IMG/VR virus record: IMGVR_UViG_2778261422_000002
Reading direction: 5' to 3' (one strand)
Length of the DNA: 7,725 bases
DNA from: a virus
Taxonomy: Duplodnaviria; Heunggongvirae; Uroviricota; Caudoviricetes
The translations under genes and the position numbers were made by a program. The notes under the pieces are model-generated. The model searched no databases, was not told the DNA's origin, and worked only from the letters and a program-made list of their open reading frames with translations. This document shows, piece after piece, positions 1 through 7,725 of the stretch (its first letter is position 1; each line of letters opens with the position of its first letter).

Positions 1-18
1 GCCCAGCCCAGCCCAGCC
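1..18. repeat. Pentanucleotide tandem repeat (GCCCA)x3 plus GCC, truncated by the window edge
   Basis: Read directly: gcccagcccagcccagcc at positions 1-18. Its full extent is unknown because the window starts inside it. Confidence 0.6.
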
Positions 19-134
19 AATGTAGCCTTTGATTTACAAATTGTTACATATATTGTTCATCAAATTTCATCATTATCAGAGATTAACAAGCACTGGCAAA
101 GGTTGTCACTCAGTAATATTCCCTAACATTCACT

Positions 135-154
135 ATTATTCACCATTATTCACC
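135..154. repeat. Perfect 10-bp tandem direct repeat ATTATTCACC x2
   Basis: Read directly: attattcacc at 135-144 and again at 145-154, in the AT-rich region upstream of the AlpA-like gene. Possible protein-binding site (operator or recombinase arm-type site). Confidence 0.6.
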
Positions 155-155
155 A

Positions 156-170
156 TTCAAATTATTTGAA
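156..170. promoter_or_regulatory. Near-perfect palindrome TTCAAA-tta-TTTGAA, candidate operator
   Basis: Read directly: ttcaaa (156-161) and tttgaa (165-170) are reverse complements around a 3-nt centre, immediately after the tandem repeat. Function inferred only. Confidence 0.3.
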
Positions 171-281
171 TAAGTTTGAAGGTGTCATTCTTTACGTATT
201 AATTCTTCTGTGCAAGTATATATACACCCAATAGAGACTAATTAAGTCTTAGTATAAATATCTAATGTGAAGGACATAGCC

Positions 282-509
282 ATGAGCTTATTGCCTCGGG
301 AAAACGCACCCCAAAAAAACTATAGACTTCTGAGAATATCTGAAGTGATTAATTTGACTGGCTTACCCAAGTCAACAATTTATCTAAAGATAAAGAATGA
401 TGAATTTCCGAACCAAGTTTCTATCGGTTCTCGTTCTGTTGCATGGGTGGAGCATGAAGTTAATGAATGGATAGAGAAAAATATTCTCAATAGAAAATTA
501 AACTCCTAA
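282..509 (+). CDS. alpA: AlpA-family phage transcriptional regulator (excisionase-like HTH), 75 aa from ATG 282
   Basis: Translation MSLLPRENAPQKNYRLLRISEVINLTGLPKSTIYLKIKNDEFPNQVSIGSRSVAWVEHEVNEWIEK has the AlpA/MerR-like HTH pattern (compare E. coli AlpA, 70 aa, recalled). AAGGA at 270-274 lies 7 nt before ATG 282; the ORF-track GTG at 267 has no ribosome-binding site. Stop TAA 507-509. Confidence 0.8.
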   Translation: MSLLPRENAPQKNYRLLRISEVINLTGLPKSTIYLKIKNDEFPNQVSIGSRSVAWVEHEVNEWIEKNILNRKLNS

Positions 510-526
510 ATTGAGGTGGCAATTAT

Positions 527-1387
527 ATGATTGACAATGTTTTTAAGAAAAAACTGGCATCAATTAAGAACGAACATGTGTCGGTGTTAGATAGTTACAA
601 AGTAAGCCCATTTAAAGAAACTCATAGCGACATAGCCTGTATTGTGCGTATTATCGAAATCTATTCACTGAATAAGCTGCGTGCTATAGGTGAAAAGCTG
701 TATTCACTTACGGGGTTAACAGTACCTGATACGGAAGCTGTGGCGAATGAGATCAACCTGCTCCTGACCCGTTATGCCCAGTTGTGTCGTCAGGAAGAGG
801 AAGAGTTATCTTTTCGGCAGCGTGAAGTGACAAATGCGGAAGTTGCATGGAAAAGCACATCCTCAAAAAACGGCGTCAGTAGCATTGCTGAAGCCAAAAC
901 GAATAAAACGGGGCATGCTGAACGAGCGGATGCTGAACGGTGTTATCATCTGGCTGTTTCCCGGCTGAATGAGCAACATAGCCGACTGAGCACAATCAAG
1001 CTTTTACCGGGCGTACTGGCCGATGAAGTTAACTACATTGGTAAGGGAGTTGAGAAGCGTTTACTGAACATATTTCCTCAATCCGGCCAGATCCCTGCTG
1101 ATTTTATTTCTGTTTTTAATGACGGTGACGTTGTCCGTGATATTAAATTTATTACAGATGCACTCAAATCTTTGTCTGATTCTGTGAGTGAAATTATTAG
1201 CCGTTGTAGCGTTCCAACTGATCGTTATGTATTAAATAACGGTGGAATGGCAAGAGCTATGGCTTACAGGGAGTACTATCGAGCAGATAATTATGTATTA
1301 CGTTCAGTCGTAAGTGACCGGGATTATGTTGAGCATGTAATGAAATACAATCGGGTTACTGAGTACAAAAATAAAATCTTTTCTTAA
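527..1387 (+). CDS. Hypothetical protein, 286 aa; candidate scaffold or capsid-morphogenesis partner of the downstream capsid homolog (function not recognised)
   Basis: Long ORF with GAGGTGG (513-519) 7 nt before ATG 527, starting 17 nt after the alpA stop and ending 22 nt before the capsid gene, so operon-like. Central region is charged and helix-like. Same position and similar size as P2 gpO (scaffold, 284 aa) relative to gpN, but I see no sequence similarity to recalled gpO or Sid. Confidence 0.7.
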   Translation: MIDNVFKKKLASIKNEHVSVLDSYKVSPFKETHSDIACIVRIIEIYSLNKLRAIGEKLYSLTGLTVPDTEAVANEINLLLTRYAQLCRQEEEELSFRQREVTNAEVAWKSTSSKNGVSSIAEAKTNKTGHAERADAERCYHLAVSRLNEQHSRLSTIKLLPGVLADEVNYIGKGVEKRLLNIFPQSGQIPADFISVFNDGDVVRDIKFITDALKSLSDSVSEIISRCSVPTDRYVLNNGGMARAMAYREYYRADNYVLRSVVSDRDYVEHVMKYNRVTEYKNKIFS

Positions 1388-1409
1388 ATACTTAAAAAGG
1401 TGAAAAACT

Positions 1410-2414
1410 ATGTATGCCTTCAAAACTGAAAGGCCGGACGCAGCACGTCGTTATCATAATAAATTCGTCACTGGCACTAACTATCAGGAAGAATCAAACA
1501 GACGCTTTGAATTAAGCGAACCCACTGAAAATATACTGCGTACCTCAATTCTGGAATCCGGGTGGCTTATTAAAAATATCACCCTACGTGATGTTAACGC
1601 CGTGTCAGGTAATGCCGTCAATATTGGTGCCAGTGAACTGCATACCGGACGTGTGGATGGTGGCCGTTTCCACAAAAAAATGGCAATCAATGGTACGGAG
1701 TTCTTTCTGACAGAGACGGATACCTGCGCCCGGATCAGCTATTCCGATATGTCTCATATTTACCATACCGGTGTGCCGGATGAGTTTGAGAAAACGGTTG
1801 AGAGCTTTTTTGCTCAGGCATATGCGCTGGACATGCTGCGGGTCGGTTTCAATGGTGTGTCGATTGCAAATACTACAAACCCGGAAATCAATAAAAAAGG
1901 CGAGGATGTCAATATTGGCTGGCATGCACTGGCGAAAGCCTACGGGAACGGAAAGCAAATCATCTCTGAGCCTGTCACTCTGGGAGAGACTGGCACCTGG
2001 AAAAATATTGATTCTCTGGCCAACCATCTGATTACTGAGCTTATTGCTGAGCAGTTTCGTGAAGATCCCCGTCTGGTTGTACTGGTTGGGGCAGAGCTGG
2101 CAGCACATCAACGCCTGAAGTTATTTAATGCCGCAGACCGCCCGGCTGATGTGAATGCTGCACAGATGGCTACAAGTTCTGTTGCTGGCCGCTTTGCGTT
2201 TATTCCCCCGTTTATGCCGGGTAAGCGTCTGGCAGTAACGACGCTGGATAATCTGCATATTTACACTCAGGCGATAACACGGTGGTTTCGTGCTGAGTTT
2301 GATGATGAAAACAGTGAATACGTACATTCCTACCTGCGCAATGAAGGCTATGCACTCGGTGAACCTGAACTGTACGCGGCTGTTGATGAGAGCGCCCTGA
2401 CGTTTGCTGATTGA
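1410..2414 (+). CDS. P2 gpN-family major capsid protein homolog (Phage_cap_P2-like), 334 aa
   Basis: AAGGTGA (1397-1403) 6 nt before ATG 1410. Blocks matching recalled P2 gpN: LDMLRVGFNGV vs LDFIMAGFNGV; NIGW vs AVGW; LITELIAEQFREDPRLVVLVGAELAA vs LIEPWYQEDPDLVVIVGRQLLA; TTLDNLHIYT vs TKLENLSIYY. Colinear over most of the length. Based on memory of the P2 sequence, not a search. Confidence 0.75.
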   Translation: MYAFKTERPDAARRYHNKFVTGTNYQEESNRRFELSEPTENILRTSILESGWLIKNITLRDVNAVSGNAVNIGASELHTGRVDGGRFHKKMAINGTEFFLTETDTCARISYSDMSHIYHTGVPDEFEKTVESFFAQAYALDMLRVGFNGVSIANTTNPEINKKGEDVNIGWHALAKAYGNGKQIISEPVTLGETGTWKNIDSLANHLITELIAEQFREDPRLVVLVGAELAAHQRLKLFNAADRPADVNAAQMATSSVAGRFAFIPPFMPGKRLAVTTLDNLHIYTQAITRWFRAEFDDENSEYVHSYLRNEGYALGEPELYAAVDESALTFAD

Positions 2415-2427
2415 CTTCGCGACAGAA

Positions 2428-2454
2428 AGACCCGCTCAGAAGCGGGTCTCGTTT
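2428..2454 (+). terminator. Stem-loop after the capsid gene (9-bp stem AGACCCGCT / AGCGGGTCT, loop CAGA) with a weak U-tract
   Basis: Read directly: 2428-2436 pairs with 2441-2449, followed by cgtttac. Lies 14 nt after the capsid stop (2412-2414). The T-run is short, so this may be a weak terminator or an RNA-stability hairpin. Confidence 0.3.
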
Positions 2455-2552
2455 ACAGCATCAGGAAAAATGAAGAACTATTTTTAAGCAGAGGCTTAAG
2501 CATGCCAGCGTTAATTAATCCAGGCAATGTTCAGTTTTCGGTTATAAATTTC

Positions 2553-2582
2553 TTGCCTCACCAGGAATGCGCGGGATATAGT
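2553..2582 (+). promoter_or_regulatory. Candidate sigma70 promoter: -35 TTGCCT (2553-2558), -10 TATAGT (2577-2582), 18-bp spacer
   Basis: Hexamers read directly; predicted start near 2587-2590. This would drive the short terminated transcript and/or the leader of the replication operon. No experimental support. Confidence 0.3.
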
Positions 2583-2587
2583 TTAAA

Positions 2588-2667
2588 GGTTGCCGCAAAA
2601 TCGGCAGCCGGGCGTAGGAACCCGTGTAATCTAACGGCGACACAACACGCGCCAGGCGTGTTTTTTT
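2588..2667 (+). ncRNA. Putative small terminated RNA of about 80 nt, possible analogue of the P4 CI immunity RNA or an attenuator leader
   Basis: Region between the candidate promoter and the intrinsic terminator. It contains box1 CGTAGGAAC (2613-2621) and box2 ATCTAACGG (2629-2637), both repeated at the RBS of the downstream gene. The overlapping ORF has an implausible translation. Length and position recall the P4 CI RNA; that is an analogy, not demonstrated homology. Confidence 0.3.
2644..2667 (+). terminator. Rho-independent terminator: stem 2644-2650 / 2656-2662, loop GCCAG, U-tract to 2667
   Basis: Read directly: ACACGC (2645-2650) pairs with GCGTGT (2656-2661), then seven consecutive T (2661-2667). 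An alternative outer helix CGACACAA (2638-2645) / TTGTGTCG (2666-2673) is also possible. Confidence 0.5.
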
Positions 2668-2790
2668 GTGTCGTAGCTTTGACTCACCTAAAATTTATGG
2701 TGTGGTGGCTGACTGCATGTTTTTATTTTTTACGCCACATCATCAGAATTATGGTAGTCCAGGCGGGGCAGCTTTCGGGCTGGCCGGTAT

Positions 2791-2880
2791 CCGTTAGAGC
2801 CGGTATTCCTACCCCCGTCTGGGCTACCACCCATGAGCGTAGGAACTCCGGTGGTAGCGTTACCCGCTATCTAACGGAGG
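2791..2880 (+). promoter_or_regulatory. Leader RNA element: an upstream arm complementary to box1 and box2, plus a second box1/box2 copy overlapping the Shine-Dalgarno of the 2889 gene
   Basis: Read directly: arm CCGTTAGA (2791-2798) is the exact complement of TCTAACGG, and TTCCTAC (2806-2812) is the exact complement of GTAGGAA. Downstream copy: CGTAGGAAC at 2838-2846 and ATCTAACGG at 2869-2877, whose final GG are the first two bases of GGAGG (2876-2880), 8 nt before ATG 2889. Interpretation as an RBS-sequestering switch is inference. Confidence 0.3.
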
Positions 2881-2888
2881 TTGCCATT

Positions 2889-3092
2889 ATGGCTACAGTC
2901 CCTGCTTTATCTCACCCTGAATTTACCTTTGTCTTTCTGGCTGTTCGCCGTACAGACCGTGATGCCTGTCCACGTCCTGTGCGTGTAATCGCAGACTGCG
3001 AGCATGCTGCACGCCTTAAACTTGCCACTGAATTTATCCTGAGCTTTGCTGCCCGTATCCCTGTGAAAAGTGCCGGGGAGGTGGTTGCATGA
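2889..3092 (+). CDS. Small hypothetical protein, 67 aa, first gene of the replication operon
   Basis: GGAGG (2876-2880) 8 nt before ATG 2889; stop TGA 3090-3092 overlaps the next start as ATGA. The ORF-track ORF 2502-3092 is this gene plus an upstream in-frame extension that I consider non-coding. Confidence 0.5.
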   Translation: MATVPALSHPEFTFVFLAVRRTDRDACPRPVRVIADCEHAARLKLATEFILSFAARIPVKSAGEVVA

Positions 3093-3325
3093 AATCCATG
3101 AATTTTAAGCAAGGCTGCATATTGAGCGAACTGGGTGAGAGTCGTCTGTTACGGGCGGCACTGGCCAGTGAGTTTCTTGCAGAGGTCCTGTCCGTTCCCA
3201 CAGTGAATGGAGCGAGAACTGTTTCCGCGGAAGGCGCTGCGGCTTTAGTGGCCTGTATTGCCGAACAACTGGATGGCGTTGTTAAGGAAACCAGCACAAT
3301 TAAGGGAGAGATGCGCGATGAATAA
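3089..3325 (+). CDS. Small hypothetical protein, 78 aa (possibly epsilon-like by position; not recognised by sequence)
   Basis: GGGGAGG at 3075-3081, 7 nt before ATG 3089, which overlaps the upstream stop (ATGA). The translation is rich in Ala, Leu and Glu and looks helical. The positional analogy to the P4 left operon is inference. Confidence 0.5.
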   Translation: MKSMNFKQGCILSELGESRLLRAALASEFLAEVLSVPTVNGARTVSAEGAAALVACIAEQLDGVVKETSTIKGEMRDE

Positions 3326-3728
3326 TAATCAAAATTTAAAGGCGCATGCTTTACGAACAGCAGTCTTACGGTACTACATTGCTGATGCATTCATTTCCTT
3401 AATGGAGCGTGTTCATAATGAACCTGTTTATATTGAAGATGGCGAACGAATAGAACTCACCCACGAAAAAGTGGTGAGCAATATTATTTACCATATTGAA
3501 ATGCCGTGGGTGAATGAGTTTGGGGCTGATGCTGGTTGCATACTGGCCGCAGAGAAACTGGAAAAAATGCTTAAACCAGGCTTTATGTCAGAAAATATTC
3601 GCCTGTCAGTTTTTGGTGTCACAGAGATGCGTGAGGTTTACCGGGATATTATTTTCGGTGCACCTGATGGCGAACTACCCGAAGGTTTTGAATTTGTGAA
3701 GCCGGAAGGTCAGGAGGTGCTGCTGTGA
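3318..3728 (+). CDS. Hypothetical protein, 136 aa from ATG 3318, immediately upstream of and coupled to the primase
   Basis: AAGGGAGAG (3302-3310) 7 nt before ATG 3318; the ORF-track start at 3258 lacks an RBS and overlaps the preceding gene. Stop TGA 3726-3728 overlaps primase start GTG 3725 (GTGA). By position it is analogous to the ORF preceding alpha in P4; no sequence identification. Confidence 0.6.
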   Translation: MNNNQNLKAHALRTAVLRYYIADAFISLMERVHNEPVYIEDGERIELTHEKVVSNIIYHIEMPWVNEFGADAGCILAAEKLEKMLKPGFMSENIRLSVFGVTEMREVYRDIIFGAPDGELPEGFEFVKPEGQEVLL

Positions 3729-6022
3729 AAACACAGTCTGTATCCACGATTTCCGGGGCTGCGACTGGGCGCTGGCCTTATATCCTGTCAGCATTAGGTA
3801 TCAAAGTACCGTCCGCAGGACATCATGGGGCTTGCCCTGCCTGTGGTGGCAAAGATCGCTTTCGACTGGACGATAAAGCGGGGCGTGGGACGTGGTTTTG
3901 TAATCAGTGCGGTCATGGCGATGGTCTTGATCTGGTTCGTCTGGTGACAGGAAGAAAGATAAAAGAAGCCGCCGGGATGGTATCTGAGGCGCTTGCATTA
4001 CCAGAAATACAGGAGAAGCCCGCTTTGCCCGCCAGGAAAAAGGCCGCAGGAAAAGAAGCGGGTGCGGAGCGATATACCAGACTCAGACAGCAGTCCTGCA
4101 ATGGTGAGCCGGTCTATCTGACAAACAAGGGCTTACACGGCTATTCACTTCCCTTGCTGTCACAGCCTTTGAATCTGGCCGGAATAACATTTTCCTCCGG
4201 TTCATTACTGCTGCCGTTGACGGATATCTCCGGGAATATTACTGGTGGTCAGCTTATCAATCCTGACGGGGATAAAAGTCTGCTGCCAGGTAGCCAGCTG
4301 TCTGGCGCATTCATTGCCCTGACCGATATACCCGCTGAAACACCTGAACAGGTGATTATCACTGAGGGTTTTGCCACGGCGCTTACCGTCAGTCTGCTGA
4401 CTGAAGGATGGATCGTGGCGGCTGTCGCTGCCACCAATTTACTGAAGGTGACGGAGCAGATCCGAAAACGCTGGCCGGAAACCCGGATCATTCTGGCCGG
4501 AGATAATGATCTGGCTGACGGGAAAGAAAACACCGGGCGTATTCAGGCAGAGAAAGCCGCCAAAGCGGTGGATGGCTGGGTAACGCTCCCTCCGGTACGC
4601 CATAAGGCTGACTGGGATGATTATCGGCAGGAAGTTGGGAAAGAACGGGCGAGAGATGCCTTTCGTGAAGAAATGACGCTGCATGGCAAAGGGCAGACCC
4701 GTTTACCAGAAGGGTTCCGGCTGACAAAAGAATATTTGTGGTACGACAAGCTGGTTAATAAGTCGGATGGCGATACGGAGATACGTAATATCAAAATTTG
4801 CAGTCCGTTGCGGGTGACGGCAATCACCAGTGATGCTGATGGGAGTAATTACGGGCGTTTGCTGGAATGGGAAGATACCAACGGAAACAGCCGTAAATGG
4901 GCAATGCCGATGGAGATGCTGGGTGGCAGCGGGGAAGAGCTGCGCCGCGTTCTGCTGGTTAACGGGCTTTCGTACATCAACATTAACGGCATGGCCAGAG
5001 CATTCCTGATGGAATATATCTCGCTGTGTAAACCGGACAGAAAAGTAACCTGTGTGAATAAAACGGGCTGGCACGGCGGGGTTTACGTTCTCCAGGATGA
5101 AGTGATAGGGCGCGAAGCCCAGTCAGTCATCTTACAAACATCGAGCGTGCAGGGGCGTGATTTTCGTGTCAGCGGCACATCAGCGGACTGGCGTGAAAAT
5201 ATAGGCCGTTACTGCATAAAGAATGCCCGTCTGGCCTTTGCGGTGAGTCTGGCATTTGCTGCCCCCCTTCTGAAACTGGTTGGTATCGGCGGTGGAGGTT
5301 ATCACCTCAAAGGGGAATCAACAGACGGTAAAACCACGACGATGAAAGTGGCTGCATCAGTATGTGGTGGAACAGATTTCTGGCATACGTGGCGGGCGAC
5401 GGGGAATGCCTTAGAAGGAACGGCGAGCCGCCGCAATGATGCCACGCTGATGCTGGATGAAATCCGGGAGGTTGACGGCAGGGAGGCGGGGAATATCGCT
5501 TATATGCTGGCTAACGGGCAGGGCAAAGCCAGAGCCAGAACAGATGGTTCGGTAAGGGAAACCAACCGCTGGAATCTGTTGTTTCTGTCCACCGGGGAAC
5601 TGTCACTGGTGGAACATGCGGCAAGCGCCGGGGAACGTACGTATGCCGGGGTTGAGGTCAGAATGATCCAGATCCCAAGCGATTCGGGCAAATATGGCGT
5701 GTTTGAAGAACTTCATGGCTTCAGTAGCGGGAAAAACCTGGCTGAGCATCTTGAGCAGCACGTAGCGCATTATCATGGCGCACCATTCCGCGACTGGCTG
5801 CATTGCCTGACCGCTGATCTGCCGGAACTGACCAGCCAGGCGAAAGCCTTATTGAAAGAGTACACCCGAAGGCTGACGCCGGAAAATGCCGGGAATCAGG
5901 ATGGCCGGAGGGAGAAGCCTTTCGTGCCGCTCAACGTTGTCTGGCTGCATGGATGGCTGACCGGGGCCATACAGCTAATCAGGAAGATAAAGCGGCACTT
6001 GAACAAGTACGGGACTTCATGA
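3725..6022 (+). CDS. Alpha-type bifunctional primase-helicase (zinc-ribbon, TOPRIM primase, SF3/D5-like P-loop helicase), 765 aa
   Basis: CAGGAGGTG (3711-3719) 5 nt before GTG 3725. Zinc ribbon CPACGG...CNQCGHGDG; TOPRIM motifs ITEGFATA and ILAGDND; Walker A GESTDGKTT; Walker B LMLDEI. This architecture is the hallmark of the P4 alpha / PICI pri-rep family. Size is close to P4 alpha (777 aa, recalled). Confidence 0.9.
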   Translation: MKTQSVSTISGAATGRWPYILSALGIKVPSAGHHGACPACGGKDRFRLDDKAGRGTWFCNQCGHGDGLDLVRLVTGRKIKEAAGMVSEALALPEIQEKPALPARKKAAGKEAGAERYTRLRQQSCNGEPVYLTNKGLHGYSLPLLSQPLNLAGITFSSGSLLLPLTDISGNITGGQLINPDGDKSLLPGSQLSGAFIALTDIPAETPEQVIITEGFATALTVSLLTEGWIVAAVAATNLLKVTEQIRKRWPETRIILAGDNDLADGKENTGRIQAEKAAKAVDGWVTLPPVRHKADWDDYRQEVGKERARDAFREEMTLHGKGQTRLPEGFRLTKEYLWYDKLVNKSDGDTEIRNIKICSPLRVTAITSDADGSNYGRLLEWEDTNGNSRKWAMPMEMLGGSGEELRRVLLVNGLSYININGMARAFLMEYISLCKPDRKVTCVNKTGWHGGVYVLQDEVIGREAQSVILQTSSVQGRDFRVSGTSADWRENIGRYCIKNARLAFAVSLAFAAPLLKLVGIGGGGYHLKGESTDGKTTTMKVAASVCGGTDFWHTWRATGNALEGTASRRNDATLMLDEIREVDGREAGNIAYMLANGQGKARARTDGSVRETNRWNLLFLSTGELSLVEHAASAGERTYAGVEVRMIQIPSDSGKYGVFEELHGFSSGKNLAEHLEQHVAHYHGAPFRDWLHCLTADLPELTSQAKALLKEYTRRLTPENAGNQDGRREKPFVPLNVVWLHGWLTGAIQLIRKIKRHLNKYGTS

Positions 6023-6339
6023 CGCGTAATCAGTTCAGTCGGTTTGCTGACTGGAATGACGACAGGAACCGGCCTGTTTCAATGATGGGATTCAGAAAAG
6101 TCGATAAAGGAGACAACGTAACGGAGCCGGTTGTGACGTTTTACGTTCTCCCGTCTGGCTGGAAGGAGATCTGTAAGGGATTTGATTCGCGTAAGGTGGC
6201 CAGGTTGTGTGTGGACGCGGGCTGGCTGAAACCCGGTGAAGATGGTCGGACGCAAAACAGCATTCGCCTGCCAGAAATAGGACTTAAACGTGTGTACCAG
6301 TTCAATACACAGGTACTGGGAAGCGCCGAACCGGAGTAA
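6019..6339 (+). CDS. 106-aa ORF coupled to the primase stop (ATGA at 6019-6022), or a primase C-terminal domain separated by a -1 frameshift
   Basis: ATG 6019-6021 overlaps primase stop TGA 6020-6022. The same frame is open from 5818 and contains an earlier ATG at 5953 (the ORF-track start) with no clear RBS. The translation (FYVLPSGWKEICKGFDSRKVARLCVDAGWLKPGEDGRTQNSIRLPEIGLKRVY) looks like a small basic DNA-binding domain and ends 27 bp before the iterons. Confidence 0.45.
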   Translation: MTRNQFSRFADWNDDRNRPVSMMGFRKVDKGDNVTEPVVTFYVLPSGWKEICKGFDSRKVARLCVDAGWLKPGEDGRTQNSIRLPEIGLKRVYQFNTQVLGSAEPE

Positions 6340-6365
6340 TTATCGCGTGAGTCTTATTTTTATGA

Positions 6366-6554
6366 GGTAACACTGGTAACAGAGGTAACGCCTGCTACTG
6401 ATGCGGTTCTTCAGTGTTACCAGTCAAAAATACTGACTGGTAACACTGGTAACAAAAAATGGTGTGTTACCACGCGTTACCTCTTGATTATGCTAACTGG
6501 TAACGGATTAAGTCCTTTTAAATCAATAACGTTACACGTGTTACCAGTGTTACA
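6366..6554. repeat. Iteron array: at least 10 copies of GGTAAC/GTTACC in both orientations plus 2 GTTACA variants; probable replication origin
   Basis: Read directly: GGTAAC at 6366, 6375, 6384, 6439, 6448 and 6499; GTTACC at 6416, 6466, 6476 and 6540; GTTACA at 6531 and 6549. Several sit in the longer unit CACTGGTAACA or its complement. P4 ori and crr consist of short iterons (type I TGTTCACC, recalled) bound by the alpha C-terminal domain; here the core is TGTTACC. Confidence 0.6.
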
Positions 6555-6565
6555 CGTTTAGAACA

Positions 6566-6593
6566 AGAGGTAGGGACTCAAATCCCTTCCTCT
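6566..6593 (+). other. Interrupted hairpin AGAGG-t-AGGGA-ctcaaa-TCCCT-t-CCTCT between the iterons and the ogr-like gene
   Basis: Read directly: 6566-6570 pairs with 6589-6593 and 6572-6576 pairs with 6583-6587, with a 6-nt loop. No U-tract follows, so it is unlikely to be a terminator; it may be a protein-binding dyad or RNA structure in the 5' region of the ogr-like gene. Confidence 0.25.
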
Positions 6594-6621
6594 GGCGGGC
6601 AACAGTATAGGGCACAGAACG

Positions 6622-6894
6622 ATGAAGATGATGAGAATGTACTGCCCCACATGTCAGGCAGTAGCGCGGATAGGTAAAACAAACAGGAAACACCCACAAC
6701 TGTATGATGTGTACTGCTATTGCTCTAATGTGGAGTGCGGTCACTCGTTTGTGATGAATGTTGCATTCTCCCATTCCGTTAGTCCAAGCGCGCTGAACGG
6801 GCAGGGGAGGGTTAAAGAGCTAATTGATGCCATTCCACCCGAGGAGCGGGAAAAGGCTTTAAAGTTGCTGCTGGCTGCGCAAAAGAACAGGTAA
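6622..6894 (+). CDS. Ogr/Delta-family zinc-finger transcriptional activator (single-domain, Ogr-like), 90 aa or less
   Basis: Translation contains C-P-T-C ... C-Y-C-S-N-V-E-C-G-H-S-F, matching the Ogr/Delta pattern (P2 Ogr: CPLC ... CQNVNC, recalled). The start is ambiguous among ATG 6622, 6628, 6631 and 6637; Ogr-like proteins begin just before the first Cys pair, so the true start may be 6637. Confidence 0.8.
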   Translation: MKMMRMYCPTCQAVARIGKTNRKHPQLYDVYCYCSNVECGHSFVMNVAFSHSVSPSALNGQGRVKELIDAIPPEEREKALKLLLAAQKNR

Positions 6895-7725
6895 AGTATG
6901 CGTCGGGAATGGCCGATCCGTTCCCGAAACCTGAACACAGGATTTCAGTTAATTAGAATATAAAGTTATTATTTTTCATATGGTTATATTTTTCGCGTTT
7001 TACGAGCCTTCATAAAATCACACACCTAAAATAAATTATCCATTTAATATCATAGTGTTGCGTATTCAGACCACAGACACAACGGACAGTAAAACTGAAA
7101 AAATCTGAATTTTTTTTCATTCTTTTCAGTTCCTGTATCGCAGTACATCCCCAGCACCGGCGCGGACTGGCGGTGTCGTTTGTAAAAAATCCTGACTGAA
7201 AAATTTTAGTGATATGAAAACCGCAGGCGGGTGCGGTGTAGTGCGATTTTTGTCAAAAATGGTTTTCGTGTGTATGCCATAGTTCTATGCACGATTATGA
7301 AAAGAACATTATTTCATAGTGTTGATATCAAAGAAAAATTTTCTGAAAGTAAATGAATTTTCATAGAAATCAATTGGTTGATATGTCTTGGTGACGATAT
7401 TTTTGATGTCTAGAACGTATAGTTTTAGTGACTACTCATAAAACTATTGATTGAATAGTATAAATGTACTTTGAAGTGATTTGTTAAAGTTAATAAATAC
7501 AATGAGTTATAATGAATTCCATGAAAAAAATGAGAGATTGGGTAATGTTGCAAATTGCAAAAAACGCAAGTGATAGACTGTAAAAGTAACGAGTACTTTT
7601 GTTATAGTAGAGAGGTTATGATTGGTTTTCAATGTAATAAATTTTTTGTTAAAGGAATATACAATTGTTTATATTATCTCAAAAAACATTTACTAAATAT
7701 ATTTTAAAGGTGGCTAAATATATTC

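Follow-up and report, generated by a model that had tools for sequence, protein, structure and literature searches.

A second reading frame in a P4-like satellite island as the probable out-of-frame end of a primase gene split by a 73-bp deletion

The second "gene" overlapping the 3' end of the primase gene in this island is very probably the out-of-frame tail of the primase gene itself, which, as judged from sequence comparison, was split by a 73-bp deletion in the course of ordinary decay. The pseudogenisation is recent, lineage-specific and of a known kind. The event is regarded as recent because only one SNP separates the window, that is, the whole stretch of 7,725 nucleotides that was analysed, from an island carrying the intact allele. 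The window carries an E. coli island of a P4-like phage satellite. The genes of the island include those for an AlpA-type regulator and Ogr/Delta and, immediately before the primase gene, a DUF5375 gene; the integrase adjoins a tRNA-Arg gene beyond the window. The cargo of the island lies between ogr/delta and the integrase gene. Apart from these genes, Rfam placed a C4 antisense RNA at 2747-2834 and isrK at 2589-2666.

Overlapping frames and the intact gene of E. coli A5

The 765-aa primase ORF occupies positions 3725-6022 of the plus strand, and the second frame, closed by a TGA at 5815-5817, is open from 5818 up to a TAA ending at 6339 (174 codons). The two overlap over 5818-6022, with the second frame being -1 relative to the primase frame (3725 = 2 mod 3; 5818 = 1 mod 3), and give an ATGA in which ATG 6019 meets the primase stop TGA at 6020-6022, the first stop reached in the shifted frame. 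Two ORFs can be read in the second frame, one of 106 aa from ATG 6019 and one of 128 aa from ATG 5953. This recount of ORFs bore out the coordinates, the -1 overlap of 205 nt and the ATGA junction described in the initial annotation. Upstream of ATG 6019 there is a weak GGGA only and no convincing Shine-Dalgarno sequence for the 106-aa ORF, and a promoter and terminator scan of 5700-6700 gave nothing exceeding the shuffle expectation, so that an internal promoter for the second ORF was not seen in this region.

When window positions 3725-6560 were compared by megablast with complete E. coli genomes, 465 records matched, the best of them at 100% identity and each divided in two pieces that span 73 bases more than the query. 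In E. coli A5 (NZ_CP028769.1, locus L001) the gene is annotated by RefSeq as a single CDS of 2,688 nt encoding 895 aa (WP_032217241.1), under the name 'DUF927 domain-containing protein'. This locus and the window agree over all 7,725 bases apart from a gap of 73 bp in the window and a single SNP at 6993. Blastn aligned the two in blocks that overlap by 12 nt (window 1-5908 to L001 1277-7184, and window 5897-7725 to L001 7246-9074), leaving 73 extra bases in L001, which carries imperfect 12-bp direct repeats 73 bp apart, CAGGTTGGCCGG (7173-7184) and CAGGATGGCCGG (7246-7257). The deletion, at window 5900/5901, is flanked by the imperfect direct repeats CAGGtTGGCCGG and CAGGaTGGCCGG, and the junction of the deletion allele reads 5'-GGGAATCAGGATGGCCGGAGGG-3'.

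The 765-aa ORF of the window consists of residues 1-725 of the intact protein followed by 40 frame-shifted residues, and 24 residues, the conserved helix VGRAVTRFALVAMAGELATKAGIT, are missing. From 5899 onwards the second frame reproduces the C-terminal 146 residues of the 895-aa orthologue without a difference, an identity by which the overlap is to be read as no chance ORF, and the translation of 5818-5898 in that frame (SAGTDQPGESLIERVHPKADAGKCRES) is without counterpart in the intact protein, the primase frame being identical to it there. The gene therefore has a continuous intact orthologue, the 895-aa CDS, a length that the majority of the named proteins in the 90%-identity cluster share, and an identifiable lesion on whose two sides the fragments match this orthologue in their own frames. 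The initial annotation had suggested, as one of two readings, a C-terminal ori-binding domain cut off from the primase where the plausibility of the frames swaps at about 5890-5915. The kind of event and its position hold, with the breakpoint found within 5897-5908, and the proposed 1-nt indel or sequencing error gives way to a deletion of 73 bp. When both translations were aligned to intact homologs, as had been proposed, the C-terminus was indeed seen to continue into the sequence of the second ORF in the 895-aa orthologue. The features of the region and the lesions found in other strains are collected in Table 1.

Table 1. Features of the split gene in the window and lesions of the same gene at other loci
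Feature	Window position or locus	Strand	Description
5' part of primase-helicase-initiator gene, native frame	3725..5899	+	codons 1-725, identical to WP_032217241.1
Upstream open stretch of second frame	5818..5898	+	-1 frame of native primase codons; non-coding in second frame
Deletion junction	5897..5908	+	remaining second repeat copy CAGGATGGCCGG; breakpoint ambiguous within CAGG
3' part of gene, original frame	5899..6339	+	last 146 codons and stop; C-terminal domain, predicted winged helix
Out-of-frame tail of 765-aa ORF	5900..6022	+	40 missense codons DGRREKPF...KYGTS, then TGA
ATGA overlap, fortuitous	6019..6022	+	in the intact protein this ATG is an internal Met (..VRDFMTRNQ..)
Iteron array, putative origin or P4 crr equivalent	6366..6554	both	GGTAAC(A) units, partly with 9-nt spacing, directly downstream
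Nonsense codons in gene	L007, L021		positions 751 (L007) and 785 (L021), from alignment to intact gene
Nonsense codon 863	L002 (RefSeq match H3 of megablast)		RefSeq pseudogene, internal stop
Small deletions	L006, L008		2-nt in L006; 14-nt in L008
IS insertion	L022		Salmonella Heidelberg
Homopolymer 1-nt deletions	L005, L012		look like long-read errors
Common large left-arm deletion, Salmonella remnants	L013-L020, L023, L024		all left of gene position 2329 lost

Domain layout, C-terminal fold and iterons

Pfam detected Zn_Ribbon_Prim (33-68), Toprim_3 (210-307) and DUF927 (331-614, E 3e-91) in the intact and the truncated protein alike, and the Walker A (GESTDGKTT) and Walker B (LMLDE) motifs are present in the window ORF. 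In a phmmer search of the intact protein against PDB sequences the helicase core matched 8tch (E 3.1e-12) and 5dgk (E 1.4e-12), and there was no match for the C-terminal domain (CTD) nor to the C-terminal domain of P4 alpha. In its normal form the gene would thus encode a protein with the Zn-ribbon/Toprim primase at its N-terminus, followed by a DUF927 helicase of the SaPI Rep/Cch type, then a connecting helix and, at the C-terminus, a winged-helix domain. On these similarities of sequence the intact 895-aa protein is a mosaic in which a P4-type primase is fused to a Rep/Cch-type initiator-helicase; it is alpha-like in its working and a member of the alpha family in its N-terminal third only.

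Pfam gave no family for the 128-aa ORF alone, nothing for the last ~280 residues of the intact protein and no match for the out-of-frame tail. An exhaustive HMMER search with the 145-aa C-terminal part among 1.84 billion representatives returned 2,019 matches at E <= 1e-3. Among the best 150 of these, 95 were of at least 400 aa, and in 87 of the 95 the domain ended not more than 30 residues from the C-terminus. The short representatives that were inspected have their first residue, in several cases not a Met, within the conserved connecting helix (..RFALVAAAGELAT..GLTGWPEGEA..), and by these starts they are to be taken as fragments and not as stand-alone genes. A homologous-protein search with the C-terminal 145 aa yielded nearly all short partial entries, which do not discriminate between a fused and a separate domain.

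An AlphaFold2 model was built for the last 187 residues of the intact protein (P0031, 16 homologs) and had a mean pLDDT of 84.9. In this model the 24 deleted residues make up the greater part of a long helix (16-37), and the C-terminal part is predicted to run helix-helix-strands-helix-helix-hairpin. The only convincing Foldseek matches in the PDB were SaPIbov1 Rep (8tch, E 4.6e-5) and SCCmec Cch (5dgk), and the predicted fold of the last 187 aa also resembles the DNA-bound protein TcpK. Besides, GGTAAC occurs in 12 copies in the window, 10 of them in 6366-6545 (6 on the plus and 4 on the minus strand), where 2.7 copies would be expected in the whole window and none of 200 shuffles reached 12. 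The iterons that had been noticed adjoining the gene are hence real, and the description of the neighbouring domain as DNA-binding-like finds support in the structure prediction and in the analogy with SaPI. From the model and this analogy, it is most likely that the C-terminal winged-helix domain recognises the GGTAAC iterons lying just downstream.

Short ORFs in other strains, alternative explanations and probable consequences

Entries of 106 aa named 'helicase' and entries of 128 aa are numerous in the database records of Salmonella and E. coli. The genomic contexts of the exact 106/128-aa ORFs were retrieved and aligned to the intact gene, and in every context examined the gene proved to be broken in another way, without a junction in common (Table 1). 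In the Salmonella remnants that have lost the left arm, the 3' end of the gene now adjoins an omptin gene. The two-gene arrangement with the junction of the window was conserved in no relative examined, these being either fused or broken elsewhere. A break hot spot at codons ~750-785 was considered and rejected as an ascertainment bias of the retrieval by exact 128/106-aa ORFs; the breaks cluster near the C-terminus because such ORFs exist only where a break lies just upstream. Hundreds of Salmonella and E. coli records list the 106/128-aa ORFs as 'helicase' or 'alkaline-shock protein'; these ORFs are thus pseudogene parts and should be flagged as broken fragments of a primase-helicase-initiator. 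The main use of the present analysis is this correction of annotation, and it opens no new biological question.

The deletion allele is rare and is absent from the complete RefSeq genomes of E. coli, as a 40-nt junction probe that seeds only on the deleted allele matched 0 of 5,426 complete E. coli genomes, and, of the 447 complete genomes matched by a 141-nt probe spanning the junction, the 40 listed records all have the flanks 73 bp further apart. This absence and the short repeat flanking the deletion would suit an artefact of sequencing or assembly, by which the 73 bp present in the true genome were lost in assembly. We hold such an artefact to be highly unlikely. An imperfect repeat of 12 bp is too short to have been collapsed by a standard assembly; the 765-aa product recurs without change on 51 contigs and in 110 index blocks, drawn from NCBI, Logan and ENA, three sources with different pipelines; and two ENA metagenome scaffolds (L003 and L004), which come from different samples, contain the whole window letter for letter. 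The allele is judged real from its recurrence in independent assemblies.

The overlap could also be read as an evolved pair of genes translationally coupled through the ATGA, the first for a 765-aa primase-helicase and the second for a separate iteron-binding protein of 106 aa. Gene callers do report the 106-aa ORF at this junction, and 106-aa 'helicase' entries are frequent in Salmonella and E. coli records. This arrangement, which the initial annotation mildly preferred, appears very improbable, as each of the 106/128-aa contexts examined is a separate lesion and the junction is not common to them, the near-identical island of E. coli A5 has one 895-aa ORF, distant homologs carry the domain fused, and the 765-aa ORF ends in 40 missense residues read out of frame. 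The Shine-Dalgarno sequence is not convincing either, and the Met residues of the 128-aa and 106-aa ORFs (5953 and 6019) both lie within helices predicted by the AlphaFold2 model. Neither Met is conserved, with homologs of 64-82% identity having AWM/AWL and DFM/DFF/DFI/SFF at the two positions, and invariant residues continue N-terminal of Met 6019, so that a putative product from ATG 6019 would begin mid-helix without the conserved residues N-terminal to the start. The preference for a separate gene is thus refuted by the continuous 895-aa ORF of the homologs, which had itself been named as the observation to decide against it. The supporting argument that 765 aa is close to the length of P4 alpha was misleading, since the intact protein has 895 aa and only its primase module is common to P4 alpha. 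A programmed -1 ribosomal frameshift joining both frames into one protein would agree with the 205-nt -1 overlap, which has the geometry of programmed frameshift sites, but it is hardly credible, as the relatives are single-frame and need no frameshift, the overlap is produced by the deletion alone and the 24 deleted residues are not restorable by frameshifting.

We therefore favour the split of a single gene, in which the 73-bp deletion between the imperfect 12-bp direct repeats would have arisen probably by replication slippage or microhomology-mediated deletion. The loss removes 24 codons (those of the conserved helix VGRAVTRFALVAMAGELATKAGIT) and shifts the frame by one base, and the upstream part then reads 40 missense codons up to a fortuitous TGA, giving the 765-aa ORF. 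As the loss of 73 bp shifts the frame, the true CTD is stranded in the -1 frame, where it is called as a 106/128-aa ORF. The 765-aa product would keep the primase and the Walker motifs and is probably unable to bind the origin or to unwind DNA, by analogy with the distant staphylococcal PriRep5, which, once its CTD is deleted, still assembles into hexamers but no longer binds the origin and has neither ATPase nor helicase activity (PMC9371898). If the truncated protein cannot initiate replication, as the same analogy suggests, the island would be a recently disabled and probably replication-defective satellite that has lost autonomous replication following induction, which matters for predicting its mobilisation by a helper phage. 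The rest of the island, one SNP away from the intact-allele island, is intact and has no further sign of decay, an observation that counts against the decay view.

Low-level reinitiation at ATG 6019 could yield a free C-terminal fragment. There is a slim chance that the split is non-neutral in this way, with reinitiation at the ATGA producing a free 106-aa winged-helix fragment that would sit on the GGTAAC iterons as a dominant-negative regulator and would lock the island and its cargo in the chromosome or block incoming related satellites. If so, the repeated independent loss of the gene, with the 3' end, iterons, ogr/delta and cargo kept, would amount to selection for immobilised islands.

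Comparison with P4 and staphylococcal islands

The gp alpha of P4 (777 aa, with primase, helicase and origin-binding functions) shares with the window protein a homologous Zn-ribbon/Toprim primase, BLASTP aligning residues 1-317 at 39% identity (E 8e-51) and giving no similarity beyond residue 317. Both proteins have the Pfam families Zn_Ribbon_Prim and Toprim_3, whereas the helicase and C-terminus of P4 alpha belong to D5_N/DUF5906/Pox_D5, none of which Pfam found in the intact 895-aa protein, where DUF927 and a different CTD take their place. The synteny of P4 is the same as that of the window, a DUF5375 gene being followed by the primase gene and an iteron block (crr in P4), and so is the satellite context with AlpA, Ogr/Delta, integrase and the C4 antisense RNA. 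The iterons are GGTGAACA in P4 and GGTAACA in the window, with a 9-nt spacing in both. The position of the iterons relative to the gene in the window is that of crr relative to alpha in P4 and of the SaPI ori relative to rep (PMC9371898).

The SaPI Rep/PriRep5 proteins and SCCmec Cch (PDB 8tch, 5dgk) have a helicase core of the same type as the window protein, in which it is covered by Pfam DUF927. The SaPI5 PriRep5 is a fused primase-Rep (PMC9371898), with the primase fused N-terminally as in the protein of the window, although the primase module of the latter is of the P4-alpha type, unlike SaPI Rep/Cch. The CTD of SaPI Rep contains a winged-helix domain recognising penta- or hexanucleotide iterons immediately downstream of rep (PMC9371898), and in these systems, as in the window, the iterons stand in both orientations directly downstream of the gene. 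The window protein differs in being enterobacterial and not staphylococcal, in a CTD of only ~15% identity, and in that its CTD has been disconnected by the deletion whereas the Rep/Cch-type CTD is contiguous with the helicase.

Frameshifted or degraded replication genes are also found in integrated P4-like satellites and their remnants, where, as in the window, a lineage-specific lesion lies in an otherwise intact island. In other strains this gene has been hit independently by nonsense, indel, IS and large-deletion lesions, and the 73-bp allele of the window differs from these cases in being absent from the complete RefSeq genomes of E. coli.

Decay of the primase-helicase gene and its remnants

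Inactivating lesions of the primase-helicase gene have arisen independently in other strains, as seen in the E. coli relative NZ_CM148320.1 (L002) and in five further loci (L006, L007, L008, L021 and L022). In three of these six the lesion is a nonsense codon, two have deletions (of 2 nt and of 14 nt) and one has an IS insertion. The gene is lost recurrently, in a sample that is biased by its mode of retrieval.

A remnant of the island is also present in many genomes of Salmonella enterica (L013-L020, L023 and L024), where a deletion covers everything to the left of primase gene position 2329 and an omptin gene adjoins the surviving 3' end. As this boundary is common to all of them, the deletion is a single old event. 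The iterons were kept in every one of these remnants. In those where the flank was read (L018-L020 and L023), ogr/delta, the cargo and the integrase gene were called; there were no calls for these three in L013-L016.

Hundreds of NCBI and UniRef entries, including the records for P0016-P0030, P0047 and P0055, represent 3'-end fragments of the primase-helicase gene under the labels 'helicase' or 'alkaline-shock protein'. Such labels are propagated mis-annotations of pseudogene pieces.

Immunity RNAs and variable cargo

Two P4-type immunity RNAs are enclosed by an ORF that RefSeq names 'Icd-like' (Table), and therefore this ORF call may in part represent RNA genes.

The cargo between ogr/delta and the integrase gene differs among the relatives, which carry an AAA ATPase and DUF4435 pair, a reverse transcriptase with a Retron_Ec48 effector, an AIPR protein or, in L006 and L021, a P4 cII-like gene, and the lineage of the window carries an unannotated 482-aa protein. 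The GC content falls to 0.30-0.38 from window position 6901 on. The slot looks like a hot spot of variable cargo.

Table. Positions of the satellite features and of the cargo slot (window positions unless a locus is named)
Feature	Position	Strand	Evidence or remark
Unannotated ORF, 286 aa	527-1387		upstream of capsid-protein homolog
P2-family major capsid protein homolog, 334 aa	1410-2414	+	Pfam Phage_cap_P2; RefSeq 'P2 family phage major capsid protein'
'Icd-like' ORF, 196 aa	2502-3092		RefSeq; Phage_ASH
isrK	2589-2666	+	Rfam, 71.8 bits
C4 antisense RNA	2747-2834	+	Rfam, 81 bits
482-aa cargo protein, ORF start	7665-7725
Cargo slot, L002	8761-11023
Cargo slot, L019/L020	7659-9549
Cargo slot, L022	7324-10749

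Comparison with P4

Canonical P4 has sid and psu and is devoid of a capsid gene, whereas the satellite in the window encodes a P2-family capsid homolog. No homology was detectable between the C-terminal modules of the satellite protein and that of P4, despite their similar iterons. The window iteron GGTAACA, some copies of which are spaced 9 nt apart, is similar to the type 1 repeat of P4, GGTGAACA, whose start-to-start distance is also 9 nt, and the array (6366-6554) occupies the position of P4 crr (4291-4590 in P4, L025), just 3' of the primase gene.
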